Assembly (NCBI RefSeq): GCF_006345805.1
Contig: NW_021832404.1
Location: 22,667-86,666, forward strand
Direction: 5' to 3'
Source of the DNA: Octopus sinensis
Lineage: Eukaryota
Length of the DNA stretch: 64,000 bases
Program-made: the position numbers and the translations under genes
Shown here: positions 1 to 62,188 of the stretch, in pieces
How the letters are laid out: every line of letters begins with the position of its first letter
How positions within the stretch are numbered: the first letter of the stretch is position 1
Notes under the pieces: model-generated
What the model saw: only the letters and a program-made list of their open reading frames with translations
What the model was told of the DNA's origin: nothing
Database searches by the model: none

Positions 1-112
1 TCCTGACATTCCTGACATTCTAGACATTCCTGACATTCCAGACATTCCGAACATTCCAGACATTCCTGGCATTCCAGACATTCCTGACATTCCAGATATT
101 CCAGACATTCCT
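1..112 (+). repeat. 9-bp tandem array (GACATTCCW)n, truncated by the window start
   Basis: Repeated GACATTCCT/GACATTCCA units read directly; translates as poly-(PDI). Confidence 0.95.
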
Positions 113-116
113 CTTT

Positions 117-512
117 GCCGACAGAGATCAAAGAGGAGTACCGACAGAGATCAAAGAAGGTGCCGACAGAGATCAAAGAGGGTCCCCATAGAGATCAAAG
201 AGGGTGCCGACAGAGATCAAAGAGGAGTACCGACAGAGATCAAAGAAGGTGCCGACAAAGATCAAAGAGGTTGCCCACAGAGATCAAAGAAGGTGCCGAA
301 AGTGATCAAAGAGGAGTTCCGAAAAAGATCGAAGAGGAGTACCGAAAGAGATCAAAGAGGGTACCGACAGAGATCAAAGAAGGTACCGAAAGAGATCAAA
401 GAGGACTACCGAAAGAGATCAAAGAATGTGCCGACAGAGATTAAAGAGGGTGCCGAAAGAGATCAAAGAAGGGCCGACAGAGGTCAAAGAGGAGTACCGA
501 AAATGATCAAAG
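117..512 (+). repeat. 22/24-bp tandem array (GCCGACAGAGATCAAAGAGGGT, with GGAGTA variants), about 17-18 units
   Basis: Recurring RCCGAMAGAGATCAAAGA core with 22- or 24-bp spacing; followed by one inverted unit at ~519-542. Confidence 0.95.
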
Positions 513-542
513 CTGGTGTCTCTGTCGGCACCTCTGATCTCT

Positions 543-905
543 GACATTCCTCACATTATAAACATTCTTGACATTACAGGCATTCCTGACATTCCAGCCA
601 TTCCTGACATTACAGACATTCCTGACATTCCAGACATTCCTGACATTCCAGACATTCCTGACATTCCGAAAATTCCAGACATTCCTGACATTACTGGCTT
701 CCAGACATTCCTGACATTCCAGACATTCCTGACATTCCTGACATTCCTGACATTCCAGTCATTCCTGACATTCCACACATTCCTGACATTCCAGACATTT
801 CAGATATTACTGACATTCCAGACATTCCAGAAATCCTGATATTCCTGACATTCCTGACGTTCCAAACATTCCAGACATTCCTGACATCCAGACATTCCTG
901 ACATT
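543..905 (+). repeat. 9-bp tandem array (GACATTCCW)n
   Basis: About 40 GACATTCCW units with scattered substitutions. Confidence 0.95.
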
Positions 906-1104
906 TGAAACGGTTCGATATGGCTTGATCCAGTTGAACCGGTTTGATCTGGTTTGATCCGGTTTGAACCGATTTGATCTGGTTTGAACCGGTTTGATAC
1001 GGTTTGAACCGTTTTGATCCGGTTTGATCCGTTTCAACCGGTTTGATCCGGTTTGATCCGTTTTCAACCGGTTTGATCCGGTTTGAACCGGTTTAATCTG
1101 GTTT
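905..1104 (+). repeat. 10-bp tandem array (CCGGTTTGAW)n
   Basis: Repeated ccggtttgat/ccggtttgaa; followed by two inverted 22-bp units at ~1105-1148. Confidence 0.95.
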
Positions 1105-1148
1105 ATCGGCACCGTCTTTGATCTTTGTTGGCACACTCTTTGATCTCT

Positions 1149-1291
1149 GACATTCCTGACATTCCAGACATTCCTGACATTCCTGACATTCTAGACATTC
1201 CTGACATTCCTGACATCCAGACATTCCGAACATTCCAGACATTCCTGGCATTCCAGACATTCCTGACATTCCGAAAATTCCAGACATTCCT
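1149..1291 (+). repeat. 9-bp tandem array (GACATTCCW)n
   Basis: Near-identical to 1-112 at an offset of ~1179 bp. Confidence 0.95.
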
Positions 1292-1295
1292 CTTT

Positions 1296-1690
1296 GCCGA
1301 CAGAGATCAAAGAGGAGTACCGACAGAGATCAAAGAAGGTGCCGACAGAGATCAAAGAGGGTCCCCATAGAGATCAAAGAGGGTGCCCACAGAGATCAAA
1401 GAGGAGTACCGACAGAGATCAAAGAAGGTGCCGACAAAGATCAAAGAGGTTGCCCACAGAGATCAAAGAAGGTGCCGAAAGTGATCAAAGAGGAGTTCCG
1501 AAAAAGATCGAAGAGGAGTACCGAAAGAGATCAAAGAGGGTACCGACAGAGATCAAAGAGGTACCGAAAGAGATCAAAGAGGACTACCGAAAGAGATCAA
1601 AGAATGTGCCGACAGAGATTAAAGAGGGTGCCGAAAGAGATCAAAGAAGGGCCGACAGAGATCAAAGAGGAGTACCGAAAATGATCAAAG
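1296..1690 (+). repeat. 22/24-bp tandem array, second copy of 117-512
   Basis: Same diagnostic variants in the same order (gtccccatag, ttgcccacag, aagtgatc, gatcgaag, gattaaag, aaatgatc). Confidence 0.95.
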
Positions 1691-1720
1691 CTGGTGTCTC
1701 TGTCGGCACCTCTGATCTCT

Positions 1721-2085
1721 GACATTCCTCACATTATAAACATTCTTGACATTACAGGCATTCCTGACATTCCAGCCATTCCTGACATTACAGACATTCC
1801 TGACATTCCAGACATTCCTGACATTCCAGACATTCCTGACATTCCGAAAATTCCAGACATTCCTGACATTACTGGCTTTCCAGACATTCCTGACATTCCA
1901 GACATTCCTGACATTCCTGACATTCCTGACATTCCAGTCATTCCTGACATTCCACACATTCCTGACATTCCAGACATTTCAGATATTACTGACATTCCAG
2001 ACATTCCAGAAATCCTGATATTCCTGACATTCCTGACGTTCCAAACATTCCAGACATTCCTGACATTCCTGACATTCCTGACATT
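1721..2085 (+). repeat. 9-bp tandem array, second copy of 543-905
   Basis: Same variants (cacattataaacattcttg, ccagccattcc, ccgaaaattcc). Confidence 0.95.
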
Positions 2086-2265
2086 TGAACCGGTTCGATA
2101 TGGCTTGATCCAGGTTGAACCGGTTTGATCTGGTTTGATCCGGTTTGAACCGATTTGATCTGGTTTGAACCGGTTTGATACGGTTTGAACCGGTTTGATC
2201 CGGTTTGATCCGTTTCAACCGGTTTGATCCGGTTTCAACCGGTTTGATCCGGTTTAATCTGGTTT
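2086..2265 (+). repeat. 10-bp tandem array (CCGGTTTGAW)n
   Basis: Copy of 905-1104; inverted 22-bp linker follows at ~2266-2309. Confidence 0.95.
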
Positions 2266-2309
2266 ATCGGCACCGTCTTTGATCTTTGTCGGCACAAACG
2301 TTGATCTCT

Positions 2310-2601
2310 GACATTTCTGACATTCCAGACATTCCTGACATTTCAGACATTCCTGACATTCCAGACATTCCTTACATTCCAGACATTCCCGACATTCAAG
2401 ACATTCCAGACATTCCAGACATTCCTGACATTCCTGACATTCCAAACATTCCTGACATTCTAGTCATTCCTGACATTCCACACATTCCTGACATTCCAGA
2501 CATTTCAGATATTACTGACATTCCAGACATTTTAGAAATCCTGACATTCCTGACATTCCAAACATTCCAGACATTCCTGACATTCCTGACATTCCTGACA
2601 T
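2310..2601 (+). repeat. 9-bp tandem array (GACATTCCW)n
   Basis: Direct reading of units. Confidence 0.95.
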
Positions 2602-2743
2602 TTGAACCGGTTCGTTATGGCTTGATCCAGGTTGAACCGGTTTGATCTGGTTTGATCCGGTTTGAACCGATTTGATCTGGTTTGAACCGGCTTGATCCGG
2701 TTTGATCCGGTTTCAACCGGTTTGATCCGGTTTAATCCGGTTT
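2602..2743 (+). repeat. 10-bp tandem array (CCGGTTTGAW)n
   Basis: Third copy; inverted 22-bp linker follows at ~2744-2787. Confidence 0.95.
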
Positions 2744-2787
2744 ATCAGCACCGTCTTTGATCTTTGTCGGCACAAACTTTGATCTCT

Positions 2788-3028
2788 GACATTTCTGACA
2801 TTCCAGACATTCCTGACATTTCAGACATTCCTGACATTCCAGACATTCCTTACATTCCAGACATTCCCGACATTCCCGACATTCCCGACATTCCAGACAT
2901 TCCTGACATTCCAGACATTCCTGACATTCCTGACATTCCAAACATTCCTGATATTCTAGACATTCCTGATATTCCAGACATTCCTGACATTCCAGATATT
3001 CCTGACATTCCAGACATTCCAGAAATCC
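2788..3028 (+). repeat. 9-bp tandem array abutting the 58-bp satellite
   Basis: GACATTCCW units run directly into tgaacatttcagggagg at 3029. Confidence 0.95.
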
Positions 3029-6000
3029 TGAACATTTCAGGGAGGAGGATTTGAAGGTGAAGGTAAGGAATGGGAAGAAGGAATATTTAACATTCCAGGG
3101 AGGGGGATTTGAAGGTAAAGGGGAGGAATGGGAAGAAGGAATATTGATCATTCCAGAGAGAGGGATTTGAAGGTAAAGTGGAGGAATGGGAAGAAGGAAT
3201 ATTGAACATTCCAGAGAGGGGGATTTGAAGGTAAAGGGGAGGAAAGGGAAGAAGGAATATTGAACATTGCATAGGGGGGGTTTGAAGGTGAAGGGGAGGA
3301 ATGGGAAGAAGGAATACGGAACATTCCAGAGAGGGAGATTTCAAGGTAAATTGAGGAATTGGAAGGAGGAATATTGAACATTCCAGAGAAAGGGATTTAA
3401 AGAGAAAGGGGAGGAATGGGAAGAAGGAATATTGAACATTCCAGAGAGGGGGATTTGAAGGTAAAGGGGAGGAATGGGAAGAAGGAATATTGAACATTCC
3501 AGGGAGGAGGATTTGATGGTGAAGTTAAGGAATGGGAAGAAGGATTATTGAACATTCCAGAGAGGGGGATTTGAAGGGAAGGGGGAGGAGTGGGAAGATG
3601 GAATATTAAACATTCCAGAGAGGGGGATTTGAAGGTGAAGGGGAGGAAGGGGAGGAAGGAACATTGAACATTGCAGAGAGGGGGATTTGAAGATGAAGGG
3701 GAGGAATGGGAAGAAGGAATATTGAACATTCCAGAGAGAGGGATTTGAAGGTAAAGGGGAGGAATGGGAAGAAGGAATATTGAACATTCCAGAGAGGGGG
3801 ATTTAAAGGTGAAAGGGAGGAAGGGGTGGAAGGAATATTGAACATTCCAGAGAGGGGGATTTTGAAGGGGAAGGGGAGGAAGGGGAGGAAGGGATACTGA
3901 ACATTCCAGAGAGGGGGATTTGAAAGTGATCGTGAGGAAGGGGAGGAAGGAATATTGAACTTCCATCCGGGAGGGGGATTTGAAGGTGAAGGGGAGGAAG
4001 TGGAGAATGGAATACTTTACATTCCAGAGAGGGGGAATTGAAGGTAAAGGGGAGGAATGGGAAGAAGAGAATATTTAACCTTCAAGAGAGGGGGATTTGA
4101 AGGTGAAGGTAAGGAATGGGAGAAAGGAATATTGAACATTCCAGAGAGAGGGATTTGAAGGTAAAGTGGAGGAATGGGAAGAAGGAATATTGAACATTCC
4201 AAGAGGGGGATTTTGAAGGGGAAGGGGAGGAAGGGGAGGAAGGGATACTGAACATTCCAGAGAGGGGGATTTGAAAGTGATCGTGAGGAAGGGGAGGAAG
4301 GAATATTGAACATTCCAGGGAGGGGGATTTGAAGGTGAAGGGGAGGAAGTGGAGAATGGAATACTTTACATTCCAGAGAGGGGGAATTGAAGGTAAAGGG
4401 GAGGAATGGGAAGAAGGAATATTTAACCTTCAAGAGAGGGGGATTTGAAGGTGAAGGTAAGGAATGGGAGAAAGGAATATTGAACATTCGAGAGAGGGAT
4501 TTGAAGGTAAAGGTGAGGAATGGAAGAAGGAATATTGAACATTCCAGAGAGGGGGATTTGAAGGTAAAGGGGAGGAAGGGAAGAAGGAATATTGAACATT
4601 GCATAGGGGGTTTGAAGTGAAGGGGAGGAATGGGAAGAAGGAATACGGAACATTCCAGAGAGGGAGATTTCAAGGTAAATTGAGGAATTGGAAGGAGGAA
4701 TATTGAACATTTCAGAGAAAGGGACTTAAATGGAAAGGGGAGGAATAGGAAGAAGGAATATTGAACATTCCAGAGAGGGGGATTTGAAGGTAAAGGGGAG
4801 GAATGGGAAGAAGGAATATTGAACATTCCAGGGAGGAGGATTTGATGGTGAAGTTAAGGAATGGGAAGAAGGATTATTGAACATTCCAGAGAGGGGGATT
4901 TTGAAGGAAGGGGGAGGAGTGGGAAGATGGAATATTAAACATTCCAGAGAGGGGGATTTGAAGGTGAAGGGGAGGAAGGAACATTGAACATTGCAGAGAG
5001 GGGGATTTGAAGATGAAGGGGAGGAATGGAAGAAGGAATATGAACATTCCAGAGAGAGGGATTTGAAGGTAAAGGGGAGGAATGGGAAGAAGGAATATTG
5101 AACATTCCAGAGAGGGGGATTTAAAGGTGAAAGGGAGGAAGGGGTGGAAGGAATATTGAACATTCCAGAGAGGGGGATTTTGAAGGGGAAGGGGAGGAAG
5201 GGGAGGAAGGGATACTGAACATTCCAGAGAGGGGGATTTGAAGGTGATCGTGAGGAAGGGGAGGAAGGAATATTGAACATTCCAGGGAGGGGGATTTGAA
5301 GGTGAAGGGGAGGAAGTGGAGAATGGAATACTTTACATTCCAGAGAGGGGGAATTGAAGGTAAAGGGGAGGAATGGGAAGAAGGAATATTTAACCTTCAA
5401 GAGAGGGGGATTTGAAGGTGAAGGTAAGGAATGGGAGAAAGGAATATTGAACATTACAGAAAAGGGGATTTGAAGGTAAAGGGAAGGAATGGGAAGAAGG
5501 AATATTGAACATTCCAGTGAGGGGATTTAAAGGTAAAGGGGTGGAATGGGAAGAAGGAATATTGAATATTCCAGGGAGGAGGATTTGAAGGTGAAGGTAA
5601 GGAATGGGAAGAAGGAATATTGAACATTACAGAGAAGGGGATTTGAAGGTAAAGGGGAGGAATGGGAAGAAGGAATATTGAACATTCCAGAGAGGGGGAT
5701 TTGAAGGTAATGGGGAGGAATGGGAAGAAGGAATATTTAACCTTTCAAAGAGTGGGATTTGAAGGTGAAGGTAAGGAATGGGAAGAAGGAATATTGAACA
5801 TTCCAGGGAGGGGGATTTGAAGGTGATTGGGAGGAATGGGAAGAAGGAATATTGAACATTCCAGAGAGAGGGATTTGCAGGTAAAGTGGAGGAATGGGAA
5901 GAAGGAATATTGAACATTCCAGAGAGGGGATTTGAAGGTAAAGGGGAGGAATGGGAAGAAGGAATATTGAACATTCCATAGGGGGGATTTGAAGGTGAAG

Positions 6001-9000
6001 TGGAGGAATGGCAAGAAGTAATATTGAACATTTCAGAGAGGGGGATTTAAAGGTAAAGGGGAGGAATGGGAATAAGGAATATTCAACATTCCACAGAAGG
6101 GGATTTGAAGGTAAAGGGGAGGAATGGGGAGGAGGAATATTGAACATTCCAGAGAGGGAGATTTGAAGGTAAAGGCGAGGAATGGGAAGAAGGAATATTG
6201 AACATTCCAGAGAGGGGGATTTAAAGGGGAAGGTGAGAAATGGGAAGAAGGAATATTGAACATTCCAGAGAGGGAGATTTGAAGGTAAAGGGGAGGAATG
6301 GGAAGAAGGAATATTGAACATTCCAGAGAGGGGGATTTGAAGGCGAAGGGGAGGAAGTGGAGAATGGAATACTGAACATTCCAGAGAGGGGGAATTGAAG
6401 GTAAATAGGAGGAATGCGAAAAAGGAATATTGAACATTACAGAGAAGGGGATTTGAAGGTGAATTGGAGGTAGGGGTGGAAGGAATATTGAACATTCCAG
6501 AGAGGGGGATTTGAAGATGAAGGGGAGGAAGGGGAGGAAGGAATATTGAACATTCCACTGGGGGGATTTGAAGGTGAAGGTGAGGAATGGGAAAAGTAAT
6601 ATTAAACATTCCAGAGACGGAGATTTCAAGGTAAAGGGGATGAGTGGGAAGAAGGAATATTGAACATTCCAGAGAGGGGGATTTGAAGGTGAAAGGGATG
6701 AAGGGGAGGAAGGAATATTGAACGTTCCAGAGAGGGAGATTTGAAGGTGAAGGGGAGGAAGGGGAGGAAGGAATATTGAACATTCCAGAGAGTGGTATTT
6801 GAAAGTGGATAGGAGGATGCAGAGGAGGGAATACTGAACATTCCAGAGAGGGGGATTTGAAGGTGAAGGGGAGGAAGGGGAGGAAGGAATATTGAACATA
6901 CCAGAGAGGGGGATATGAAGGTGAAGGGGAGGAAGGGGGAAGGAATATTGAACATTCCACAGAGGGGGATTTGAAGGTAAATGGGAAGAATGGGAAGAAG
7001 GAATATTTAACATTCCAGGGAGAGGGATTTGAAGGTAAAGTGGAGGAATGGGAAGAAGGAATATTGAAGATTACAGAGAGGAGTATTTGAAGGTGAAGGG
7101 AAGGAATGGGAAGAAGGAATATTGAACATTACAGAGAAGGGGATTTGAAGGTAAAGGGGAGGAATGGGAAAAAGGAATATTCAACATTCCACAGAGGGGG
7201 ATTTGTAGGTGAAGGGGAGAAAGGGGAGGAAGGAAGACTGAACATTCCAGAGAGGAGGATTTGAAGGTAAAGTAAGGAATGGGAAGAAGGAATATCTAAC
7301 ATTCCAGAGAGGGGGATTTGAAGGTGAAGGTAAGGAATGGGAGAAAGGAATATTGAACATTCCAGGGAGTGGGATTTCAAGGTAAAGGGGAGGAATGGGA
7401 AGAAGGAATATTGAACATTCCAGAGAGGGGGATTTAAAGGTAAATGGGTGGAATGGGAAGAAGGAATTTTGAACATTCCAGAGAAAGGGATTTGAAGGTA
7501 AAGAGGAGGAATGGGAAGAAGGAATATTTAACCTTTCAAAGAGGGGGATATGAAGGCGAAGGTAAGGAATGGGAAGGAGGAATATTGTACATTCCATAGA
7601 GGGGGATTTGAAGGTAAAGGGGAGGAATGGGAAGAAGTAATATTGAAAATTGCAGAGAGGGGGATTTGAAGGTAAAGGGGAGGAATGGGAAGAAGGTATA
7701 TTGAACATTCCAGAGAGGGTGATTTGAAGGTAAAGGGGAGGAATGGGAAGAAGGAATATTGAACATTCCACGGAGGAGGATTTGAAGGTGAAGGTAAGGA
7801 ATGGGAAGAAGGAAAATTGAACATTACAGAGAAGGGGATTTGAAGGTAAATGGGAGGAATGGGAATAAGGAATATTCAACATTCCACAGAAGGGGATTTG
7901 AAAGTGAAGGTGAGGAATGGGAAGAAGGAATATTGAACATTCCAGAGAAGGGGATTTGAAGGTAAATGGGAGGAATGGGAATAAGGAATATTCAACATTC
8001 CACAGAAGGGGATTTGAAGGTGAAGGTGAGGAATGGGAAGAAGGAATATTGAACATTCCAGAGAGGGGGATTTGAAGGTGAAGGGGATGAATGTGAAGAA
8101 GGAATATTCAACATTCCAGAGAGGGGGATTTGAAGGTGAAGGGGAGGAAGAGGAGGAAGGAACATTGAACATTGCAGAGAGTGGGATTTGAAGATGAAGG
8201 GGAGGAAGGGGAGGAATGAATATTGAACATTCCAGAGAGGGGTATTTGAAGGTGAAGGGAGGAATGGAAGAAGGATATTCAACATTCCAGAGTGTAGTAT
8301 GTGAAGGTAAAGGGGAGGAATGGAAAAGGAATATTGAACATTCCAGAGAGGGGGATTTGAAGGTGAAGGGGAAGAAGGGAGGAAGGGATACTGAACATTC
8401 CAGAGAGGGGATTTGAAGGTGAATTGGAGGTAGGGGTGGAAGGAATATTGAACATTCCAGAGAGGGGGATTTGAAGATGAAGGGGAGGAAGGGGAGGAAG
8501 GAATATTGAACATTCCAGAGAGTGGTATTTGAAGGTAAACGGGAGGAATGGGAACAAGAAGTATTGAACATAACAGGAGGGGGATTTGAAGGTAAAGGGG
8601 AGGAATGGGAAGAAGGAATATTTAACGTTCCAGAGAGGGGGATTTAAGGTAAAAGGGTGGAATGTGAAGAAGGAATATTGAACATTCCAGAGAAAGGGAT
8701 TTGAAGGTAAGGGGAGGAATGGGAGAAGGAATATTGAACATTACAGGGAGGAGGATTTGAAGGTGAAGGGAAGGAATGGGTAGAAGGAATATTGAACATT
8801 CAGAGAAGGGGATTTGAAGGTAAAGGGGAGGAATGGGAAGAAGGAATATTCAACATTCCACAGAGGGAGACTTGAAGGTAAATGGGAGGAATGGGAAGAA
8901 GGAATATTTAACCTTTCAATGAGGTGGATTTGAAGGTGAAGGTAAGGAATGGGAAGAAGGAATATTGAACATGCCAGAGAGGGGGATTTGAAGGTAAAGG

Positions 9001-12000
9001 GGAGGAATGGGAAGAAGTAATATTGAACATTCCAGAGAGGGCGATTTGAAGGTAAAGAGGAGGAAGGGGAAGAAGGAATTTTGAACATTCCAGAGGGGGA
9101 TTTGAAGGTAAAGGGGAGGAATGGGAAGAAGGAATATTGAACATTCCATGGAGGAGGATTTGAAGGTGAAGGTAAGGAATGGGAAGAGGTATATTGAACA
9201 TTACAGAGAAATGGATTTGAAGGTAATGGGAGGAATGGGAATAAGGAATATTCAACATTCCACAGAAGGTGATTTGAAGGTAAGGGGAGGAAGGGGAATA
9301 AGGAATATTGAACATTCCATAGAGATGGATTTGAAGGTAAAGGGTAGGAATGGGAAGAAGGAATACTGAACATTCCAGAGAGGGATATTTGAAGGTAAAG
9401 GGGAAGAAGGGGAAGAAGAATATTGAACATTCCAGAGAGGGGATTTGAAGGTAAATGGGAGGAATGGGAAGAAGGAATATTAAACATTCCAGAGAGGGGG
9501 ATTTGAAGGTGATGGGTAGGAAGGGGAGGAAGGAACATGAACATTGCAGAGAGTGGGATTTGGAGGTGAAGGGGAGGAAGGGGAGGAATGAATATTGAAC
9601 AATCCAGATAGGGGGATTTGAAGGTGAAGGGAGGAATGGAAGAAGGAATATTCAACATTCCAGAGAGTAGTTGTGAAGGTAAAGGGGAAGAATGGGAAGA
9701 AGGAATATTGAACATTACAGAGAGGGGATTTGAAGGTGAATTGGAGGAAGAGGAGGAAGGAATATTGAACATTCCAGAGAGGGGGATTTGAAGGTGAAGG
9801 GGAGGAAGGAATATTGAACATTCCAGAGAGGGGGATTTGAAGGTGAAGGGGAGCAAAGGAGGAAGGAATATTGAACATTCCAGAGAGGGGGATTTGAAGA
9901 TGAAGGGGAGGAAGGGGAGAAGGAATATTGAACATTCCAGAGAGGGGGATTTGAAGGTGAAGGGAGGAAGAAATATTGAACATTGTAGAGAGGGGGATAT
10001 GAAGGTGAAGGGGAGGAAGGGGAGGAAGGAATATTGAACATTTCAGAGAGGTGGATTTGAAGTTGAAGGGGAGGAGTGGAGGAAGGAATATTGAACATTC
10101 CAGAGAGTGGATTTGAAGGTGAAGGGGAGGAGAGGAGAATGAATACTGAACATTCCAGAGATGGGGATTTCAAGGTGAATTGGAGTATGGGTGGAAGGAA
10201 TATTGAACATTCCAGAGAGGGGATTTGAAGATGAAGGGGAGGAAGGGGAGGAAGGAATATTGAACATTCCACTGGGGGGATTTGAGGTGAAGGGAGGAAT
10301 GGGAAAAGGAATATTGAACATTCCAGAGACGGAGATTTCAAGGTAAAGGGGATGAGTGGGAAAAGGAATATTGAACATTCCAGAGAGGGGGATTTGAAGG
10401 TGAAAGGGATGAAGGGGAGAAGGAATATTGAACATTCCAGAGAGGAGATTTGAAGGTGAAGGGGAGGAAGGGGGAGGGATATTGAAAATTCCAGAGAGTG
10501 GTATTTGAAAGTGAAGGGGAGGAAGGGGAGGAAGGAATATTGAACATACCAGAGAGGGGGATATGAAGGTGAAGGGGAGGAAGGGGTGGAAGGAATATTG
10601 AACATTCCAGAGAGTGGTATTTGAAAGTGAAGGGGAGGAAGGGGAGAAAGGAATACTGAACATTCCATAGAGGGGGATTTGAAGGTAAAGGGGAGGAATG
10701 GGATGGAGGAATATTGAACATTCCAGAGATGGAGATTTAAAGGTAAAGGGGTGGAATGGGTAGAAGGAGTATTGAACATTCCAGAGAGAGGGATTTGAAG
10801 GTAATGGGGAGGAATGGGAAGAAGGAATATTGATCATTCCAGGGAGGAGGATTTGAAGGTGAAGAGAAGGAATGGGAAGAAGGAATATTGAACATTACAG
10901 AGAAGGGGATTTGAAGGTATAGGGGAGGAAGAGAAAGAAGGAATATTCAACATTCCACAGAGGGGGATTTGAAGGTAAACGGGAGGAATGGGAACAAGAA
11001 GTATTGAAACATATGTGGAGGGGATTTAAGGTAAAGGGGAGGGTGGGAAGAAGGAATATTGAAAAGAGAAGGATTTAAAGTAAAAGGGTGGAATGGGAAG
11101 AGGAATATTCCAGAGAAAGGGATTTGAAGGTAAGGGGAAGATGGGAAGAAGGAATATTTGACCATTACAGGGAGGAGGATTTGAAGGTGAAGGGAAGGAA
11201 TGGGAAGAAGGAATATTGAACATTACATAGAAGGGATTTGATGGTAAAGGGGAGGAATGGGAAGAAGGAATATTCAACATTCCACAGAGGGAGACTTGAA
11301 GGTAAATGGGAGGAATGGGAAGAAGGAATATTTAACCTTTCAAGAGGTGGATTTGAAGGTGAAGTAAGGAATGGGAAGAAGGAATATTGAACATTCCAGA
11401 GAGGGGGATTTGAAGGTAAAGGGGAGGAATGGGATGAAGTAATATTGAACATTCCAGAGAGAGGTGATTTGAAGGTAAAGAGGAGGAATTGGAAGAAGGA
11501 ATATTGAACATTCCAGAGAGGTGATTTGAAGGCAAAGGGGAGGAATGGGAAGAAGGAATATTGAACATTCCATGGAGGAGGATGTGAAGGTGAAGGTAAG
11601 GAATGGAGGAAGGAATATTGAACATTACAGAGAAAGGGATTTGAAGGTAAATGGGAGGAAGGGAATAAAGAATATTCAACATTCCAAGAAGGGGGATTTG
11701 AAGGTAGGGGAGGAAGGGGAAGAAGGAATATTGAACATTCCATAGAGATGTATTTGAAGGTAAAGGGGAGGAATGGGAAGAAGGAATATTGCATCCAGAG
11801 GGGATATTTGAAGGTAAAGGGGAGGAGGGGAAGAAGAATATTGAACATTCCAGAGAGGTGGATTTGAAGGTAAATGGGAGGAATGGAAGAAGGAATATTA
11901 ACATTCCAGAGAGGGGGATTTGAAGGTGAAGGCTAGGAAGGGGAGGAAGGAACATTGAACATTGCAGAGAGTGGGATTTGAGATGAAGGGGAGGAAGGGG

Positions 12001-51000: not shown

Positions 51001-54000
51001 CATTCCAGAGAGGAGGATTTGAAGGTAAAGGGGAGGAATGGGAAGAATGAATGTTGAACATTCCAGAGAGGGGATTTGAAGTTGAAGGGGAGGAATAAGA
51101 AGGAATATTGAACATTCCAGAGAGGGGGATTTGAAGGTAAAGGGGAGGAATGGAAGAAGGAATATTGAACATTCCAGAGAGGGGATTTGAAAGCGAAGGG
51201 GAGGAAGGGGTGGAAGGAATATTCAACATTCCAGAGAGTGGGGATTTGAAGGTGAAGGGGGGAATGAATATTGACCATTCCAGAGAGGGGATTTGAAGGT
51301 GAAGGGGAGGAAGGGGGGGAAGGAATATTAAACATTCCAGAGAGGGGGATTTGAAGGTGAAGGGGAAGAAGTGGAGAAAGGAATACTGAACATTCCAGAG
51401 AGGGGGATTTGAAGGTAAAAAGGAGGAATGGGGAGAAGGAATATTTAACCTTCCAGGTAGGGGGATTTGAAGGTGAAGGTAAGGAATGGGAAAAAGGAAT
51501 ATTGAACATTCCAGGTAGGGGGATTTGAAGGTAAAGGGGAGGAATGGGAAGAAGGAATATTGATTATTCCAGAGATCGGGATAGAAAGGTAAAGGGGAGG
51601 AATGAGTTAAAGGAATATTGAACATTCCAGAGAGGAGGATTTGAAGGTGAATTGGATGAATGGGAAGAAGGAATATTGAACATTCCAGAGAGGGGGATTT
51701 GAAGGTGATGGGGAGGAAAAGGAGGAAGGAATATTGAACATTTCAGAGAGGGGGATTTGAAGGTGAATTGGAGGTAGGGGAGGAAGGAATATTGAACATT
51801 CCAGAGAGCGGGATTTGAAGGTGACGGGGAGGAAGGAATAATGAACATTCCAGAGAGGGGCATTTGAAGGTGAAGGGTGGAAAGGGAGGAAGGGATATTG
51901 AACATTCCAGAGAGGGGGATTTGAAGGTAAAGGGGAGGAATGGGAAAAACAATCTTGAACATACCAGAGGGGGGGATTTAAAGGTGAAGGGGAGGAAGGG
52001 TAGGGAGGAATATTGAACATTCCAGAGATTGGGATTTGAAGGTGAATGGGAGGAAGGGGAGGGAGGAATATTGAACATTCCAGGAGGGGGGTTTACGGTG
52101 AAGGGGAGGAAGGGGGCGGGGGAATATTGAACATTCCAGAGAGGGGATTTGAAGGTGAAGGGGGAAGGAATATATGAAACATTCCAGAGAGGGGGATTTG
52201 AAGGTGAAGGAGAGGAAGGCGTGGAAGGAATATTAAAATTCCAGAGGGGGGGATTTGAAGTTGAAGGGGAGAATGGATGAAGGAATATTCAACATTCCAG
52301 AGAGTGGGATTTGTAGCTAATGGGGAGGAATGGGTAGAAGGAATATTGAACATTCCAGAGGGGGGGGATTTTAGGTGAAGGGAAGGAATGTGAGAAGGAA
52401 TATTGAACATTCCAGAGAGGGGGATTTGAAGGTAAAGGGGAGGAATGGGATGAAGGAATATTGAACATTCCAGAGAGGGGGATTTTAAGGTGAAGGGGAG
52501 GAATGGTGAAGGTAAGGAATGGTGAAGGTGAAGGTAAGGAATATGGAACATTCCAGAGAGAGGGATTTGGAGGTGAAGGGGAGGTATGGGAAGAAGGAAT
52601 ATTGAACATTCCAGAGAGGTGGATTTGAAGGTAAATGGGCGGAATGGGAAGAAGGAATATTGAACATTCCAGAGAGGGGGATTTGAAGGTGAAAGAGAGC
52701 AATGGGAAGAATCAATATTGAACATTCCAGAGAGGGGGATTAGAAGGTTAAAGGGAGGAAGGGGAGGAAGGAATATTGAACATTCCAGAGAGGAGGATTT
52801 GAAGGTAAAGGGGAGGAATGGGAAGAAGGAATATTGAACATTCCTGAAAGGGGGATTTGAAGGTAATGGGGAGGAATGGGAAGAAGCAATATTGAACATT
52901 CCAGAGAGGGGGATTTGAAGGTGAAGGGGAGGAAGGGGAAGAAGGAATATTGAACATTCCAGAGAGTGGGATTTAAAGGTGAGGTGGAGGAATGGGAAGA
53001 AGGAATATTGAAAATTCCCGAGGGGGGGATTTGAAGGTGAAGGTGGGGAATGTGAAGAAGGAATATTGAACATTCCATAGAGGGGGATTTGAAGGTGAAA
53101 GGAGGAATGGGAAGAAGGAATATTGAACATTCCAAAGAGTGGGATTTGAAGTTGAATGGGTGGATTGGGAAGAAGGAATATTGAACATTCCAGAGAGGGG
53201 GATTTGAAGGTGAAGGTAAGGAATGGCGAAGGTAAGGAATGGTGAAGGTGAAGGTAAGGAATATTGAACATTCCAGAGAGAGGGATTTGGAGGTTAAGGG
53301 GAGGTATGGGAAGAAGGAATATTGAACATTCCAGAGAGGGGGATTTGAAGGTAAAGGGGCGGAATGGGAAGAAGGAATATTGAACATTCCAGAGAGGGGG
53401 ATTTGAAGGTGAATTGGATGAATGGGAAGAAGGAATATTGAACATTCCAGAGAGGGGGATTTGAAGGTGAATTGGAGGTAGGGGAGGAAGGAATATTGAA
53501 CATTCCAGAGAGCGGGATTTGAAGGTTACGGGGAGAAGGAATATTGAACATTCCAGAGAGGGGCATTTGAAGGTGAAGGGTGGAAAGGGAGGAAGGGATA
53601 TTGAACATTCCAGAGAGGGGGATTTGAAGGTAAAGGGGAGGAATGGGAAAAACATCTTGAACATACCAGAGGGGGGGATTTAAAGGTGAAGGGATGAAGG
53701 TAGGGAGGAATATTGAACATTCCAGAGATTGGGATTTGAAGGTGAATGGGAGGAAGGGGAGGGAGGAATATTGAACATTCAGAGAGGGGGGTTTACGGTG
53801 AAGGGGAGGAAGGGGGCGGGGAAATATTGAACATTCCAGAGAGGGGATTTGAAGGTGAAGGGGGAAGGAATATTGAACATTCCAGAGAGGGGGATTTGAA
53901 GGTGAAGGAGAGGAAGGCGAGGAAGGAATATTGAAAATTCCAGAGGGGGGGATTTTTGAAGTTGAAGGGGAGGAATGGGATGAAGGATATTCAACATTCC

Positions 54001-55840
54001 AGAGAGTGGATTTGTAGCTAATGGGGAGGAATGGGTAGAAGGAATTTTGAACATTCCAGAGGGGGGGGATTTTACGGTGAAGGGTGGAAGGGGAAGAAGG
54101 AATATTGAACATTCCAGAGAGGGGGTTTGAAGGTAAAGGGGAGGAATGGGATGAAGGAATATTGAACATTCCAGAGAGGGGGGATTTTAAGGTGAAGGGG
54201 AGGAATGGAATAAGGAATATTGAACATTCCAGAGAGGGGGATTTGAAGGTAAGGTAAGGAAGGGAAGAAGGAATATTGAACATTCCAGAGAGGGGGATTT
54301 GAAGGTGAAGTAAGGAATGGTGAAGGTAAGGAATGGTGAAGGTGAAGGTAAGGATATGGAACATTCCAGAGAGAGGGATTTGGAGGTGAAGGGGAGGTTG
54401 GGAAGAAGGATTATTGAACATTCCAGAGAGGTGGATTTGAAGGTAAAGGGGCGGATGGAAGAAGGAATATTGAACATTCCAGAGTGGGGGTTTGAAGGTG
54501 AAAGAGAGCAATGGGAAGAAGCAATATTGAACATTACAGAGAGGGGGATTAGAAGGTTAAAGGGAGGAAGGGGAGGAAGGAATATTGAACATTCCAGAGA
54601 GGAGGATTTGAAGGTAAAGGGGAGGAATGGGAAGAAGGAATATTGTACATTCCTGAGAGGGGGATTTGAAGGTAATGGGGAGGAATGGGAAGAAGGAATA
54701 TTGAACATTCCAGAGAGGGGGATTTGAAGGTGAAGGGGAGGAAGGGGAAGAAGGAATATTGTACATTCCAGAGAGTGGGATTTAAAGGTGAGGTGGAGGA
54801 ATGTGAAGAAGGAATATTGAAAATTCCAGAGGGGGGGATTTGAAGGTGAAGGTGGGGAATGTGAAGAAGGAATATTGAACATTCCATAGAGGGGGATTTG
54901 AAGGTGAAAAGGAGGAATGGGAAGAAGGAATATTGAACATTCCAAAGAGTGGGATTTGAAGTTGAATGGGTGGAATGGGAAGAAGGAATATTGAACATTC
55001 CAGAGAGGGGGAATTGAAGGTGAAGGTAAGGAATGGTGAAGGTGAAGGTAAGGAATATTGAACATTCCAGAGAGAGGGATTTGGAGGTGAAGGGGAGGTA
55101 TGCGAAGAAGGAATATTGAACATTCCAGAGAGGGGGATTTGAAGGTAAAGGGGCGGAATGGGAAGAAGGAATATTGAACATTCCAGAGAGGGGGATTTGA
55201 AGGTGAAAGAGAGCGATGGGAAGAAGCAATATTGAACATTCCAGAGAGGGGGATTAGAAGGTTAAAGGGAGGAAGGGGAGGAAGGAATATTGAACATTCC
55301 AGAGAGGAGGATTTGAAGGTAAAGGGGAGGAATGGGAAGAAGGAATATTGAACATTCCAGAGAGGGGGATTTGAAGGTGAAGGGGAGGAAGGGGAAGAAG
55401 GAATATTGAACATTCCAGAGAGTGGGATTTAAAGGTGAGGTGGAGGAATGTGAAGAAGGAATATTGAAAATTCCAGAGGGGGGGATTTGAAGGTGAAGGT
55501 GGGGAATGTGAAGAAGGAATATTGAACATTCCATAGAGGGAGATTTGAAGGTGAAAAGGAGGAATGGGAAGAAGGAATATTGAACATTCCAAAGAGTGGG
55601 ATTTGAAGTTGAATGGGTGGAATGGAAGAAGGAATATTGAACATTCCATACAGTGGGATTTGAAGGTGAAGGGGAGGAATAGGAAGAATGAATATTGAAC
55701 ATTCCATAGAGGGGGATTTGAAGGTGAAGGGGAAGAATGGGACGAAGGAATATTGAACATTAAATAGAGTTTGGATTTGAAGGTGAAGGGGAGGAATGGG
55801 AATAAGGAATATTGAACTTTCCAGAGAGGGAGATTTGGAG
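3029..55840 (+). repeat. 58-bp satellite array, about 900 units; consensus GAATATTGAACATTCCAGAGAGGGGGATTTGAAGGTRAAGGGGAGGAATGGGAAGAAG
   Basis: Unit counted as 58 nt; repeat-derived ORF starts recur at 58-bp steps (e.g. 17657, 17599); single orientation throughout; 45 of 58 consensus bases are purines on the + strand. Confidence 0.98.
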
Positions 55841-55842
55841 AT

Positions 55843-56211
55843 TTATAAAAGCTATAAATAGAAGCTATAAATAGAAGCTATAACTAGAAGCTATAAATAG
55901 AAGCTATAAATAGAAGCTATAACTAGAAGCTATAAATAGAAGCTATAAATAGAATCTATAAATAGAATCTATAAATAGAATCTATAAATAGAATCTATAA
56001 ATAGAATCTACAAATAAATAAATAAATAAATAAATAAATAAATACATAAATAAATAGAATCTATAAATAGAATCTATAAATAGAAGCTAAAAATAGAATC
56101 TATAAATAGAATCTATAAATAGAATCTATTAATAGAAGCTATAAATAGAAGCTATAAATAGAAGCTATAAATAGAAGCTATATATAGAAGCTATAAATAG
56201 AAGCTATAAAT
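55843..56211 (+). repeat. 13-bp tandem array (KCTATAAATAGAA)n with an internal (AAAT)n stretch
   Basis: Repeated gctataaatagaa/tctataaatagaa; interrupts the 58-bp satellite. Confidence 0.95.
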
Positions 56212-56460
56212 ATTGAACATTCAATAGAGGGGGATTTGAAGGTGAAGGGGAAGAATGGGAAGAAGGAATATTGAAAATTAAATAGAGTGGGATTTGAAGG
56301 TGAAGGGGAGGAATGGGTAGAAGGAATATTGAACATTCTAGAGAGGGAGATTTGGAGGTGAAGGGGAGGAATGGGAAGAAGGAATATTGAACATTCCATA
56401 GAGGGGGATTTGAAGATAAAGGGGAGGAATGGGAACAAGGAATATTTAACATTCCAGAGA
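56209..56460 (+). repeat. Terminal ~4.5 units of the 58-bp satellite
   Basis: aatattgaacat...gggatttgaaggtgaagggg units resume after the 13-bp array. Confidence 0.95.
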
Positions 56461-56541
56461 GTTCAGACATGCTCAAACCAGTTAAAACCGGTTCAAACTG
56501 GTTCAAAATGTTCAAACCGGTTGAAACCGGAACAAACCAGT

Positions 56542-56602
56542 TCAAACACTTTCATCAAACACTTTCATCAAACATTTTTCATCAGACATTTTCATCAAAC
56601 AT
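56542..56602 (+). repeat. 13-bp tandem array (AACAYTTTCATCA)n, block 1
   Basis: aaacactttcatc / aacatttttcatc / gacattttcatc units. Confidence 0.9.
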
Positions 56603-56750
56603 TAAACCGGTTCAAACCGGCTCAAACCGGATCAACCACATCAAACAAGTTCAAACCGGATCTAACCAATTCAAAACGGTTCAAACTGGTTCAAACCGGT
56701 TCAAACCGGTTCGAACCGGTTCAAACCGGTTCAAACCGGATCAAACCAGT

Positions 56751-56880
56751 TCAAACACTTTCATGAAACGTTTTTCATTAGACATTTTCATCAAACATTT
56801 TTCATCAGACATTTTCATCAGACATTTTCATCAAAAATTTTCATCAAACATTTTCATCAAACATTTTCATCAGACATTTT
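56751..56880 (+). repeat. 13-bp tandem array (RACATTTTCATCA)n, block 2, about 10 units
   Basis: Direct reading of units. Confidence 0.92.
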
Positions 56881-57032
56881 GATCCTGTTTGAACCGGTTT
56901 TATTCGATTTGTACCGGTTTGGTCCGGTTTAAACCGTATCAAACCAGTTCAAATTGGTTCAAACCGGTTCAAACCGGATCAAACCAGTTCAAACCGGTTC
57001 AAACTGGTTCAAACCGGTTCAAACTGGTTCAA

Positions 57033-57156
57033 ATCTATAAATAGTATCTATAAATAGAATCTATAAATAGAATCTATAAGTAGAATCTATAAATAGTATC
57101 TATAAATAGAATCTATAAATAGAATCTATAAATAAATAAATAAATAAATAAATAAA
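57033..57156 (+). repeat. 13-bp (TCTATAAATAGAA)n followed by (AAAT)n
   Basis: Direct reading of units. Confidence 0.93.
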
Positions 57157-57345
57157 ATATATATGCAAATTATAAATAGGCAATTATGTATATATATATG
57201 CAAATTATGTATATATATATATATGCAAATTATGTATATATATATGCAAATTATGTATATATATATGAAAATTATGTATATAAATATATGCAAATTATGT
57301 ATATATATATGTAAATTATGTATATATATATGCAAATTATGCATA
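57157..57345 (+). repeat. ~21-25-bp array (TA)n-TGCAAATTATG containing ATGCAAAT
   Basis: Six perfect ATGCAAAT (57163, 57198, 57223, 57244, 57288, 57330) plus ATGAAAAT and ATGTAAAT variants, separated by variable (TA)n. Confidence 0.9.
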
Positions 57346-58530
57346 TAGAATCTATAAATAGAATCTATCAATAGAATCTATAAATAGAATCTATAAATAG
57401 AATAAATAAATAAATAAATAAATAAATAGTATCTATAAATAGAATCTATAAATAGAATCTATAAATAGAATCTACAAATAGAATCTATAAATAGAATCTA
57501 TAAATAGAATCTATAAATAGAATCTATAAATAAATAAATAAATAAATAAATACAATCTATAAATAGAATCTATAAATAAATAAATAAATAAATAAATAAA
57601 TACTATCTATAAAAATAATCTATAAATAGAATCTATAAATAGAATCTATAAATAGAATCTATAAATAAATAAATAAATAAATAGAATCTATAAATAGAAT
57701 CTATAAATAGAATAAATAAATAAATAAATAAATAAATAGAATCTATAAATAGAATCTATAAATAGAATCTATAAATAGAATCTATAACTAGAATCTATAA
57801 ATAGAATCTATAAATAGAATCTATAAATAGAATCTATAAATAAATAAATAAATAAATGAATAAATAAATACATAAATAAATAAATAGAATCTATAAATAG
57901 AATCTATAAATAGAATCTATAAATAGAATCTATAAATAAATAAATAAATAAATGAATAAATAAATACATAAATAAATAAATAGAATCTATAAATAGAATC
58001 TATAAATAGAATCTATAAATAGAATAAATAAATAAATAAATAAATAGAATCTATAAATAGAATCTGTAAATAGAATCTATAAATAGAATCTATAAATAAA
58101 TACATAAATAAATAAATAGAATCTATAAATAGAATCTATAAATAAATAAATAAATAAATGAATAAATAAATACAGAAATAAATAAATAGAATCTATAAAT
58201 AGAATCTATAAATAGAATCTATAAATAGAATCTATAAATAAATAAATAAATAAATGAATAAATAAATACATAAATAAATAAATAGAATCTATAAATAGAA
58301 TCTATAAATAGAATAAATAAATAAATAAATAAATAAATAAATAGAATCTATAAATAGAATCTATAAATAGAATCTATAAATAGAATTTATAAATAGAATC
58401 TATAAATAAATACATAAATAAATAAATAGAATCTATAAATAGAATCTATTAATAGAATCTATAAATAAATAAAAATAAATAAATATATAGTATCTATAAA
58501 TAGAATCTATAAATAGTATCTATAAATAGA
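57346..58530 (+). repeat. Compound array of 13-bp TCTATAAATAGAA blocks alternating with (AAAT)n
   Basis: Direct reading; recurring higher-order block marked by aaatgaataaataaatacataaat. Confidence 0.95.
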
Positions 58531-58696
58531 TGTCAGGAATGTCAGGAATGTCTGGAATGTCAGGAATGTCAGGATTACCGGAATATCTGGAATGTCAGTA
58601 ATATCTGGAATGTCTGGAATGTCTGGAATGTCAGGAATGTCTGGAATGTCTGGAATGTCTGGAATGTCAAGAATGTTTGGAATGTGAGGAATGTCA
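58530..58696 (-). repeat. 9-bp array in inverted orientation (WGGAATGTC)n
   Basis: Reverse complement of the left-flank 9-bp array, including the cacatt..aaacattcttgac variant next to the junction. Confidence 0.95.
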
Positions 58697-60535
58697 GAGA
58701 TCAGAGGTGCCGACAGAGACACCATCTTTGATCATTTTCGGTACTCCTCTTTGATCTCTGTCGGCCCTTCTTTGATCCCTGTCGGCCCTTCTTTGATCTC
58801 TTTCGGCACCCTCTTTCATCTCTGTCGGCACATTCTCTGATCTCTTTCGGTAGTCCTCTTTGATCTCTTTCGGTACCTTCTTTGATCTCTGTCGGTACCC
58901 TCTTTGATCTCTTTCGGTACTCCTGTTTGATCCATTTCGGTACTCCTCTTTGATCACTTTCGGTACCTTCTTTGATCTCTGTGGGCACCCTCTTTGATCT
59001 CTGTCGGCACCTTCTTTGATCTCTGTCGGTACTCCTCTTTGATCTCTGTCGGCACCCTGTTTGATCTCTGTCGGTACCCTCTTTGATCTTTTTCGGTACT
59101 CCTCTTTGATCTCTGTCGGCAACCTCTTTGATCTCTGTCGGCACCCTCTTTGATCTCTTTCGGCACCCTCTTTGATATCTGTCGGCACCCTTTTTGATCT
59201 CTTTCGACACCCTTTTTGATCTCTGTAGGTCCTTCTTTGATCTCTTTCGGCACCCTCTTTGATCTCTGATAGAAAGAGATCAAAGAGGGTGCCGACAGAG
59301 ACCAAAGAGGAGTACCGAAAAATATATCTTTCGGTACTCCTCTTTCATCTCTGTCAGCACTATCTTTGATCTTTTTCGGTACTGCTCTTTGATCTCTGTC
59401 GGCACCCTCTTTGATCTTTTTCGGTACTCCTCTTTGATCTCTGTCGGCCCTTCTTTGATATCTTTCGGCACCCTCTTTGATCTCTGTCGGCACCCTCTTT
59501 GATATCTGTCGGCACCTTCTTCGATCTTTTTCGGTACTCCTCTTTCATCTCTTTCGGCACCCTCTTTGATCTATGTCGTCACACTCATTGATCTTTTTCG
59601 GTACTCCTCTTTGGTCTCTGTCGGCAACCTCTTTGATCTTTGTCGGCACCCTCTTTGATCTCTTTCGGCATCCTCTTTGATCCCTTTAGGTGCTCCTCTT
59701 TGATCTCTGTCGGCACCTTCTTTGATCTCTTTAGGTTCTCCTCTTTGATCTCTGTCGGTACTCCTCTTTGATCTATGTCGGCACTCTCTTTGATCTCTTT
59801 CGGTACTCCTCTTTGATCTCTGTCTGCACCCTCTTTGATCTCTTTCGATACTCCTCTTTGATCTCTGTCGGCACCCTGTTTGATCTCTTCCGACACTCTC
59901 TTTGATATCTCTCGGCACCCTCTTTGATCTCTGTTTGTCCCCTTTTTGATGTCTTTCGACTCCCTTTTTGTTCTCTGTCGGCACCCTCTTTGATGTCTTT
60001 CGACACCCTCTTTGATCTCTTTCGGCACCCTCTTTGATCTCTGTCGGTACTACCTTTGATCTCTTTAGGCACCCTCTTTGATGTCTGTCGGCACTCTCTT
60101 TGATATCTTTCGGGACTCTTCTCTGATCTCTTTCGGCACAATTTTTTATCTCTTTCGGCACCCTATTTGATCTCTTTCGGTGCCCTATTTCATCTCTGTC
60201 GGGACCCTTTTTGATCTCTTTCGGCACCCTCTTTGATCTTTTTCGGCACCCTCTTTTATCTCGGTCGGCACCCACTTTGATCTCTTTCGGTACTCCTCTT
60301 TGATATCTGTCGGCACCCTCTTTGATCTCTGTCGGCACCCTCTCTGATCTCTTTCGGCACCCTCTTTTATGTCTTTCTGTACTCCTCTTTGACCTCTTTC
60401 GGTACGCTCTTTGATGTCTGTCGGCACCCTTTTTGATCTCTTTCGGCACCCTGTTTAATGTCTTTCGGCGCACTCTTTGATCTCTTTCGGGACTCCTCAT
60501 TGATCTCTCTCGGGACTCTTTCATCTCTTTCGGCG
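58697..60535 (-). repeat. 22/24-bp array in inverted orientation (CTCTTTGATCTCTGTCGGCACC)n, about 80 units, with a micro-inversion at ~59272-59322
   Basis: Reverse complement of 117-512; units become more degenerate towards 60535. Confidence 0.95.
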
Positions 60536-61112: not shown

Positions 61113-61144
<32 letters not shown>

Positions 61145-61169
61145 ATATATATATATTTATATAGTGGCG

Positions 61170-61207
<38 letters not shown>

Positions 61208-61245
61208 ATATATATATATATATAATATATATATATATATATACA

Positions 61246-61304
<59 letters not shown>

Positions 61305-61313
61305 TATATATAT

Positions 61314-61381
<68 letters not shown>
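61113..61381. repeat. (TA)n microsatellite with (TC)n and (TACA)n interruptions
   Basis: Direct reading; the transposon end abuts this TA tract. Confidence 0.97.
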
Positions 61382-61944: not shown

Positions 61945-62105
61945 AGGAGAGAGAGAGAATGAGAAGGAGGGAGAGAGGGAATTCAGAGAAAGAAAGGGAG
62001 AAAGAGAGAAGAGAGAGAAAAAGAGGGAGAGAGAGAGAAGAGAGAGAGAGGAAGAAAGGGAGAGAGAAAAGAGAGTGAAAGAGAGGGAGAGAAAGAGGAG
62101 GGAAT
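61945..62105 (+). repeat. GA-rich low-complexity tract
   Basis: Degenerate (GA)n/(GAGG)n. Confidence 0.9.
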
Positions 62106-62188
62106 GGGTTACCGGCTATAGGACAATTGTATTTTATAAGGAAAGAATTTGATTTTAGAAAGAGAAATCCTCTACAAGGAAAGGATAA

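Follow-up and report, generated by a model that had tools for sequence, protein, structure and literature searches.

Foldback elements, such as Tetris (PMC4079207), Galileo (PMC3573991), Drosophila FB and sea urchin TU, have modular, repetitive inverted segments on either side of a non-coding middle, with tandem repeats that are able to expand into satellite. Most of them are Mutator-like, and Galileo is P-like. Tetris has TIRs of up to 1,735 bp, TSDs of 8-10 bp and several copies (PMC4079207). In the MITE-borne satellites miDNA4 and Xstir of Xenopus (reviewed in PMC12628747), a non-autonomous element of the Tc1/mariner group is joined to a tandem array, with microhomology at the join, and the arrays ride inside many element copies. 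In cichlid centromeres, according to the available part of PMC13652916, a large satellite lies between an inverted pair of "centroids" linked to a non-autonomous DNA transposon; the centroids, ~15 kb long, are found on most chromosomes, where they lie between satellite blocks that alternate in orientation.

Here we describe a locus of Octopus sinensis in a window of 64,000 nucleotides (the whole stretch of DNA analyzed). Repetitive inverted segments lie on either side of a 58-bp satellite, so the layout resembles that of a foldback, and the non-coding middle and expandable tandem repeats are shared as well. Unlike in the described foldbacks, the middle is 53 kb long, the arms are asymmetric, no second copy is known, and the single visible terminus is a pogo end with TA. 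Compared with the centroids, as far as the available text on these goes, the arms are below 1 kb, consist of short-period repeats and enclose a main array that is not flipped. These octopus repeats were not found among the papers listed in searches of the open-licence literature; one cephalopod repeat survey, in its available part, left out simple repeats (PMC8967140). The locus has the look of satellite DNA rearranged in the ordinary way, and not of a giant mobile element.

Layout of the locus and its inverted core

The features are collected in Table 1. A block of 22-mer, junction, 9-mer and 10-mer repeats is present twice, in opposite orientations, the right copy with a 13-mer insertion and the left copy tandemly duplicated, and a non-autonomous pogo element that has lost its 3' end lies directly next to the right 22-mer array.

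Table 1. Features of the locus. Modules: A, 22/23-bp; B, 9-bp; C, 10-bp; D, 58-bp; E, 13-bp AT-rich; F, second 13-mer.
Feature	Position	Strand	Remarks
Module B 9-bp array	1..111	+	Outside first 22-mer block; continues past window edge
Module A 22/23-bp array, left copy 1	116..512	+	18 monomers; begins at 9-bp hairpin (109-137)
A-to-B junction	513..545	+	Holds one reversed 22-mer; common to right arm
Module B 9-bp array, left copy 1	541..905	+	
Module C 10-bp near-palindromic array	904..1104	+	
Linker of two reversed 22-mers, distinct sub-variant	1105..1146	-	Recurs at ~2266-2307 and ~2744-2785
Second tandem unit, B-A-junction-B-C-linker	1147..2307	+	Period ~1.18 kb; 99.3% identical to first
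Truncated units, B-C-linker-B, running into 58-mer	2308..3036	+	
Module D 58-bp satellite	3029..55837	+	~900 copies, single orientation
Module E 13-bp AT-rich array	55845..56212	+	Interrupts 58-mer
Final 4.4 58-mer copies	56209..56461	+	Orientation of main array
Inverted 10-bp arrays alternating with module F	56473..57033	-	Short piece, 56878-56936, flipped back
Module E block (1.5 kb) that includes 4-mer and 21-mer runs	57032..58529	+	At right-arm B/C junction, AT either side
Right-arm 9-bp array B	58530..58697	-	Left B start and end variants kept; ~200 bp shorter
Core inverted paralogue of 191-575 and 1370-1753	58663..59068	-	96.1% identity
Long 22/23-bp array	58720..60534	-	~82 monomers; innermost ~15 in register with left
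Micro-inversion of ~2.5 monomers between two perfect hairpins	59247..59345	no strand	
Non-autonomous pogo-superfamily element (TIGD4-like relatives)	60535..61112	-	
Pogo terminus with five subterminal 14-bp motifs	60981..61112	-	
TA microsatellite directly outside pogo terminus	61113..61381	no strand	Provides TA target

The initial annotation had taken 58530-~59270 to be the reverse complement of ~117-710 and of its duplicate at ~1296-1890. Inverted homology was recovered by blastn, in which 58530-59143 (minus strand) matched 116-708 and 1295-1887 at 88.8% and 88.6% over 616 columns, but the in-register part ends at ~59070, and ~15 of the ~80 monomers of the right array match in register while the rest do not. 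The junction and the translations that had been quoted occur on both sides, and the order of the 22-mer variants holds for the core, which has one unique register: when left 191-435 was moved stepwise along the reverse complement of the right 22-mer array, the best ungapped position scored 0.959 and the next best 0.702 (with gaps, 0.942 against 0.863, with a median of 0.808 over 66 registers). Within left copy 1 of module A, the part in register is 191-512. The true inverted paralogue is ~0.4 kb long and consists of 22-mers, the junction and the start of the 9-mers (58663-59068; 96% identity); alignment of 191-575 with its reverse complement gave 370 matches, 15 substitutions and one 21-bp gap. 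About 65 outer monomers of the right array have no left counterpart within the window. The inversion is real, yet smaller and less symmetrical than had been claimed.

On the left side, bases 1-905 recur at 1180-2085 with 99.3% identity, and the blocks are tandem 1.18-kb units with 9-mers lying outside them. The left A blocks start at the 9-mer/hairpin junction and not at a long 22-mer array, and single reversed 22-mers are present at every left junction. At 19 of the 21 variable sites, the two left copies group together against the right copy.

The order A-B-C is mirrored if the 1.5-kb 13-mer insertion is discounted. This insertion (57032-58529) falls exactly at the right-arm 9-mer/10-mer junction, which means that the mirrored order reaches as far as the 10-mer. 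The claim that both arms run in the same order from the outside in is borne out for A-B-C, but 9-mers (1-111) lie outside the left 22-mers and the 13-mer modules are confined to the right side. The 10-bp arrays are mostly inverted between the sides, as had been proposed, and have their monomer in common, but without a unique register (best 60-bp tiles, 0.75-0.88); none of the 30 longest exact inverted matches of at least 30 bp that were listed involves them. The 58-mer, which had been counted into the mirrored arms, does not belong there. It is inverted nowhere in the window, with 24,525 forward diagnostic 9-mer words against 1 reverse over 3000-56500, the block at 56209-56461 included. A minus-strand count of 510 was set aside because its anchor is nearly palindromic, and the diagnostic words are the valid test. 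Internal duplications of 1.5-3.2 kb in the 58-mer array are 98.8-99.5% identical and rich in 1-bp indels; over 3.2 kb there were 52 gap events and 37 substitutions.

Both hairpins that bound the small flip inside the right 22-mer array are perfect, one with a 21-bp stem and a 7-nt loop and the other with a 17-bp stem and an 8-nt loop (fold z of -15.5, equalled by 0 of 200 shuffles). A flip bounded in this way points to template switching, and the mechanism proposed for the long inversion is an extension from such small ones.

The truncated pogo element

The remnant at 60535-61112 consists of the 5' end, the first 25 codons, ~75 bp of filler and the C-terminal region, and breaks off ~20 codons before the stop, at ~14 nt resembling the 22-mer. 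It is without a start codon, and its last codons and entire 3' end are replaced by the 22-mer array. Judged by its sequence, it is a 3'-truncated, internally deleted element of the pogo superfamily; the replaced 3' end and the single terminus match mark it as a truncated copy. Nine transposase matches were obtained, eight of them with PF03184 and PF03221 (E values of 4e-28 to 8e-19), and the remnant shares 57-69% with DDE_1/HTH_Tnp_Tc5 transposases over about half the query. The domains were verified in the relatives P0002 and P0005, while the remnant itself has no significant Pfam match. As in the superfamily, there is transposase homology (CENP-B_N/HTH_Tnp_Tc5 plus DDE_1) and a TA beside a short terminus, at 61112, where a TA run follows; no second terminus or second TIR was found within the window, which holds one match only. 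Five 14-bp subterminal motifs with 0-3 mismatches occur at the terminus, against 0.56 expected by chance. The N- and C-terminal transposase remnants, the outside TA and the subterminal repeats are shared with TIGD4-like transposases (P0002-P0009 and P0032), and the full-length relatives have DD30D spacing (counted by eye in P0005). TIGD4 is derived from pogoR according to the available part of PMC7386202.

The closest named relatives are from Octopus vulgaris. The same deletion and filler recur in two O. vulgaris open reading frames, P0011 and P0031 (88% and 81%), whose scaffolds measure 182 and 136 Mb; of the two, P0031 reaches a normal C-terminus without any 22-mer. A representative protein search gave 21 matches; of seven new ones that were inspected, P0011, P0012, P0013 and P0026 are pogo remnants, and P0021, P0022 and P0028 were rejected as unrelated repeats. 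A protein search with a 10-mer/9-mer frame (82 matches, none named octopus) was dropped as low-complexity. The long open frames are repeat translations without a significant Pfam match in the part tested, and a coding role was rejected; Rfam gave 0 matches on 55000-64000.

Four of the 24 raw-read runs were used (X1, X2, X13 and X16), with no reads placed from X16; X3-X12, with small shares, were excluded. The contigs, for which 24 of 1,265 pieces were listed, show presence and not absence, and their depth does not equal copy number. The pogo/22-mer junction was bridged at low depth in two of the four runs, by one listed contig each: at depth 27 with 0 differences in 153 in X1, and at depth 67.3 with 1 difference in 123 in X2. 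No bridging contig was among the pieces listed for X13. Summed depth at 60535 was 27 in X1 and 67.3 (one contig) in X2. Pogo consensus pieces reached depths of 900-1,800, and the X1 consensus contig, at 1503, runs into the normal C-terminal codons and not into the 22-mer. Given junction depths of 27 and 67 against ~1,500 for the family, the pogo end is probably a neighbour of the array at one locus and not a family terminus. In miDNA4 and Xstir the array lies inside many copies, whereas here the common pogo form, represented by the high-depth contig and P0031, continues normally without it, and the junction looks locus-specific.

How the locus may have formed

We lean towards a patchwork of composite satellite DNA in which one copy is ectopic and inverted. 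The locus would have been assembled from 9-, 10-, 13-, 22- and 58-bp repeats through slippage, unequal exchange and template switching. A single fold-back or ectopic copying event may have produced the inverted block (3.9% divergence), with the left unit duplicated afterwards (0.7%); the 58-mer would have expanded, or been brought in, between the inverted blocks, and the pogo 3' end may have been lost in a microhomology-guided join to the 22-mer array. This reading draws on the unique register and 96.1% identity of the core, the 19 of 21 sites that unite the left copies, the hairpin-bounded flip and the reversed 22-mers at the left junctions. It also draws on the 13-mer block at the B/C junction, the one-orientation 58-mer, the pogo relatives with the same deletion and the low-depth junction. 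With only one end, the unit is not expected to transpose, and the locus is best seen as passive, rearrangement-prone satellite DNA. As such, it illustrates on a small scale how short near-palindromic satellites flip and insert into each other and how a pogo element is truncated at satellite microhomology. It can inform work on satellite evolution and the assessment of assemblies, but it is not a new kind of element.

An unlikely alternative, though one that carries some weight, is that the A-B-C block is a composite repeat dispersed over many loci, of which two independent copies flank the 58-mer in opposite orientations, either truly or by an assembler join through the 53-kb satellite. The 22-mer is very abundant (summed depth of 20,000-245,000 at 60463-60508), 96% identity fits divergence at the family level, and the many 1-bp indels of the 58-mer blocks form the pattern of a noisy long-read consensus, an opening for mis-joins. 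The O. vulgaris gene model P0010 combines 22-mer and 10-mer translations in differing proportions, but it may represent the orthologue of this locus or one nearby. Against dispersal, the searches yielded no second occurrence of the junction, with 0 matches in metagenome and viral contigs and low-complexity protein matches only, a weak test in these mostly microbial or viral collections.

That the 22-bp satellite was born at this locus from pogo's last transposase codons is doubtful. The 30-nt normal transposase continuation aligned to the 22-mer array with a score of 26, which was reached by 56 of 1,000 shuffles and by 20 of the 621 control windows (a conservative comparison, as some controls adjoin the junction), and the similarity is not significant.

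The initial annotation had proposed a foldback-like unit with the satellite as loop or cargo. Inverted segments that are modular and internally repetitive do lie on either side of the 58-mer array, with the 0.4-kb core and the mirrored A-B-C order (58-mer and 13-mers excluded), but a foldback unit with satellite cargo is unsupported: the window has a single terminus, which comes from an ordinary, deleted pogo family whose terminal sequence is short and of which a sister copy ends normally. A giant one-off foldback would need the pogo head and satellites to have been copied inverted, with a second terminus upstream of base 1, a length above 61 kb and a TA duplication. We regard this as improbable, and paired pogo ends around the 53-kb satellite as about equally so. 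The mirrored modules and the intact terminus with subterminal motifs and TA would fit it, as would, in the available parts of these sources, the TIR extension through recombination proposed for Galileo (PMC3573991) and the TIRs of 392-856 bp in some unclassified pogo elements (PMC7386202). However, no second diverged pogo/22-mer junction is visible among the contigs placed at 60535 in X1 and X2, and several dispersed copies with the same ends are not indicated by the junction depths (a rough guide) or the sister copy. The left A blocks open at the hairpin junction with 9-mers outside, and the outer right monomers are unpaired in the window. A TA is present on the right, and the left end lies beyond the window. 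The arms are 96.1% identical by substitutions, with large length differences, against 98-100% within a Galileo copy in the available part of PMC3573991. The mirrored A-B-C modules and the genuine transposon end beyond the right arm would be expected of a foldback, and both count against the patchwork. A second pogo end in the DNA upstream of base 1 would make the locus much more important.

Still less probable is that the pogo element both seeded the 22-bp satellite here from its own last codons and was then copied inverted, head and satellites together; if true, satellite birth and the formation of a foldback-like unit exceeding 61 kb would have taken place in one pogo element at one place. 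Finally, although 1-bp indels are frequent in the satellite, it is very improbable that the inverted arm is an assembly artefact with the same DNA placed twice, since 15 substitutions and one whole monomer set the arms apart, without noise-type indels relative to left copy 1, as do B length and the 13-mer insertion, and the outer end of the right arm was confirmed in two of the four runs, from different studies.

Module order and extent of the inverted block

Nearly the whole window is tandem repeat, and the nearest named proteins to its translations are all Octopus vulgaris gene models. We read the locus as a composite satellite in which an inverted paralogous block lies next to a pogo element that has been truncated.

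Principal components of the window, in order
Feature	Position	Strand
9-, 10- and 22/23-bp arrays	1-3036	
58-bp satellite (58-mer)	3029-55837	
13-, 10-, 9- and 22-bp arrays	after the 58-mer, up to 60534	
Non-repetitive 578-bp piece (pogo element)	60535-61112	-
Microsatellite-rich DNA	beyond 61112	

The inverted arms described in the initial annotation are confirmed in part: they are real but shorter and less symmetrical than stated there. In blastn, 58530-59143 is inverted relative to 116-708 and 1295-1887 with ~89% identity. When left 191-435 was slid along the right array, a single register was obtained (ungapped 0.959 versus 0.702 for the next; gapped 0.942 versus 0.863, 66 registers), so the likeness goes beyond a common monomer. 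The ~0.4-kb core in this unique register, 191-575 against the reverse complement of 58663-59068, matches at 370 positions, with 15 substitutions and a single gap of 21 bp. The right 9-mer block is ~200 bp shorter than the left one and keeps its start and end variants. A 1.5-kb 13-mer block of the right arm lies, with AT on both sides, at exactly the point that corresponds to the 9-mer to 10-mer transition in the left copies; the order 22-mer, junction, 9-mer, 10-mer is therefore mirrored, which reaches slightly further than had been claimed. The symmetry has limits, however: ~15 of the ~80 right-array 22-mer monomers are in register with the left, the register being lost near 59070, and the 10-mer arrays are inverted as monomers but lack a unique register between the arms. 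The 58-mer is unmirrored and keeps one orientation across its array (diagnostic words, 24,525 forward versus 1 reverse).

On the left, the modules are repeated in tandem: 1-905 recurs at 1180-2085 with 99.3% identity, and 19 of 21 variable sites group both left copies against the right copy. The left 22-mer blocks are short, start at a 9-bp hairpin, and are flanked by 9-mers on their outer side.

The truncated pogo element and its junction

The 578-bp piece is a pogo-superfamily element carrying a deletion. Its translation matches nine proteins, eight of them with DDE_1 and HTH_Tnp_Tc5; one cluster member bears the name TIGD4-like, and TIGD4 is derived from pogoR in PMC7386202, which also treats pogo TSD and TIR types. 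In the window, the element has one terminus, with a TA run outside it, and five subterminal motifs (0.56 expected). The same deletion with its ~75-bp filler occurs in two O. vulgaris ORFs, P0011 and P0031, whose scaffolds measure 182 and 136 Mb. P0031 reaches the normal C-terminus; P0011 ends two residues beyond the junction and is uninformative on DNA further on. The window's copy stops ~20 codons early, at the start of the 22-mer array, where ~14 nt are similar to transposase codons.

Around 60500-60540, the first junction 22-mer resembles the last transposase codons apart from small deletions, and both common 22-mer monomer starts occur, 19 nt apart, in the continuation that was lost. This likeness may reflect microhomology or a birthplace and is not significant. 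It is an appealing idea that the end of the transposase gave rise to the 22-mer, but the alignment behind it is not significant, 56 of 1,000 shuffles reaching the same score. The filler (60745-60822) is also found in contigs continuing into dissimilar sequence, which points to capture from another repeat. Full-length transposases 57-69% like the octopus remnant (P0002-P0009, P0032, and P0034) include Anneissia japonica records and a UniRef deuterostome entry, a distribution for which horizontal transfer is possible.

Reads of 4 of 24 runs (X1, X2, X13, and X16) were compared with 60440-61118, using the best 24 of 1,265 pieces. The pogo/22-mer junction was bridged in two of the four, from different studies and organism labels, by contigs of depth 27 in X1 (0 differences in 153 letters) and 67.3 in X2 (1 difference in 123 letters). 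No bridging piece was found among the pieces listed for X13; from X16, which has the same species label, zero reads matched, though the 22-mer was abundant in X13. The X1 pogo consensus contig (depth 1503) runs into normal codons, translating as IRRKKMRQPT. Pieces across the filler had depths of 640-1,804 and the 22-mers summed depths of 20,000-245,000, depth not being copy number. Among the pieces listed, there was no second diverged junction at 60535. We cautiously conclude that the junction is real and locus-specific and that, taken separately, both the pogo family and the 22-mer are common.

Possible origin and comparison with foldback elements

In the right array, ~2.5 monomers are flipped between a pair of perfect hairpins, one having a 21-bp stem and a 7-nt loop and the other a 17-bp stem and an 8-nt loop; every left junction holds reversed 22-mers, and a 10-mer piece at 56878-56936 is flipped back. 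Fold-back template switching is expected to yield hairpin-bounded flips. The larger inverted copy would have been made once, by the same flipping tendency or by ectopic repair between satellites, and would precede the left tandem duplication. The pogo 3' end was probably lost through a join at microhomology with the 22-mer.

Alternatively, and in our view rather unlikely, a dispersed composite unit is present in two copies, possibly united by a mis-join; in its favor are P0010, from an unplaced O. vulgaris locus, in which linker-sub-variant 22-mers occur together with 10-mers, and the near-identical multi-kb blocks of the 58-mer with many 1-bp indels. A one-off giant foldback would require a second pogo end upstream and is quite doubtful, and the substitution pattern between the arms makes a pure artefact very improbable.

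The proposal that the 58-mer is the loop or cargo of a giant foldback-like unit is borne out as a resemblance only: the layout is like that of a foldback element, but multiple copies and comparable arm identity were not found. Tetris TIRs reach 1,735 bp with TSDs of 8-10 bp (PMC4079207), TIRs of one Galileo copy are 98-100% alike and TIR extension is proposed (PMC3573991), and miDNA4 and Xstir are covered (PMC12628747). PMC13652916 treats cichlid centromeres with inverted 'centroids', a survey of cephalopod repeats left simple repeats aside (PMC8967140), and PMC5432645 offered nothing of relevance. No description of these octopus satellites was among the open-licence papers listed by a literature search.

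Other satellites and the flank

A 13-bp AT-rich satellite breaks up two arrays, at 55845-56212 in the 58-mer and at 57032-58529 at the 9-mer/10-mer junction, a pattern that would fit insertion into other satellites. The 58-mer array has higher-order duplications at offsets of ~2.3, 4.6, 6.8, and 23.7 kb. Its monomer includes a 9-mer-like word beside a small palindrome, and the passage from the 9-mer array at ~3030 is seamless, so the 58-mer may derive from the 9-mer array. In the flank, 62219-62420 presumably resembles an octopus SINE in its tail region; Rfam gave no match for it. At 63225-63291 there is a second CACTG end, with a TA run after it, that does not match the pogo terminus pattern, and a short motif at 63630-63670 is one that we take to be like a Helitron-like end.
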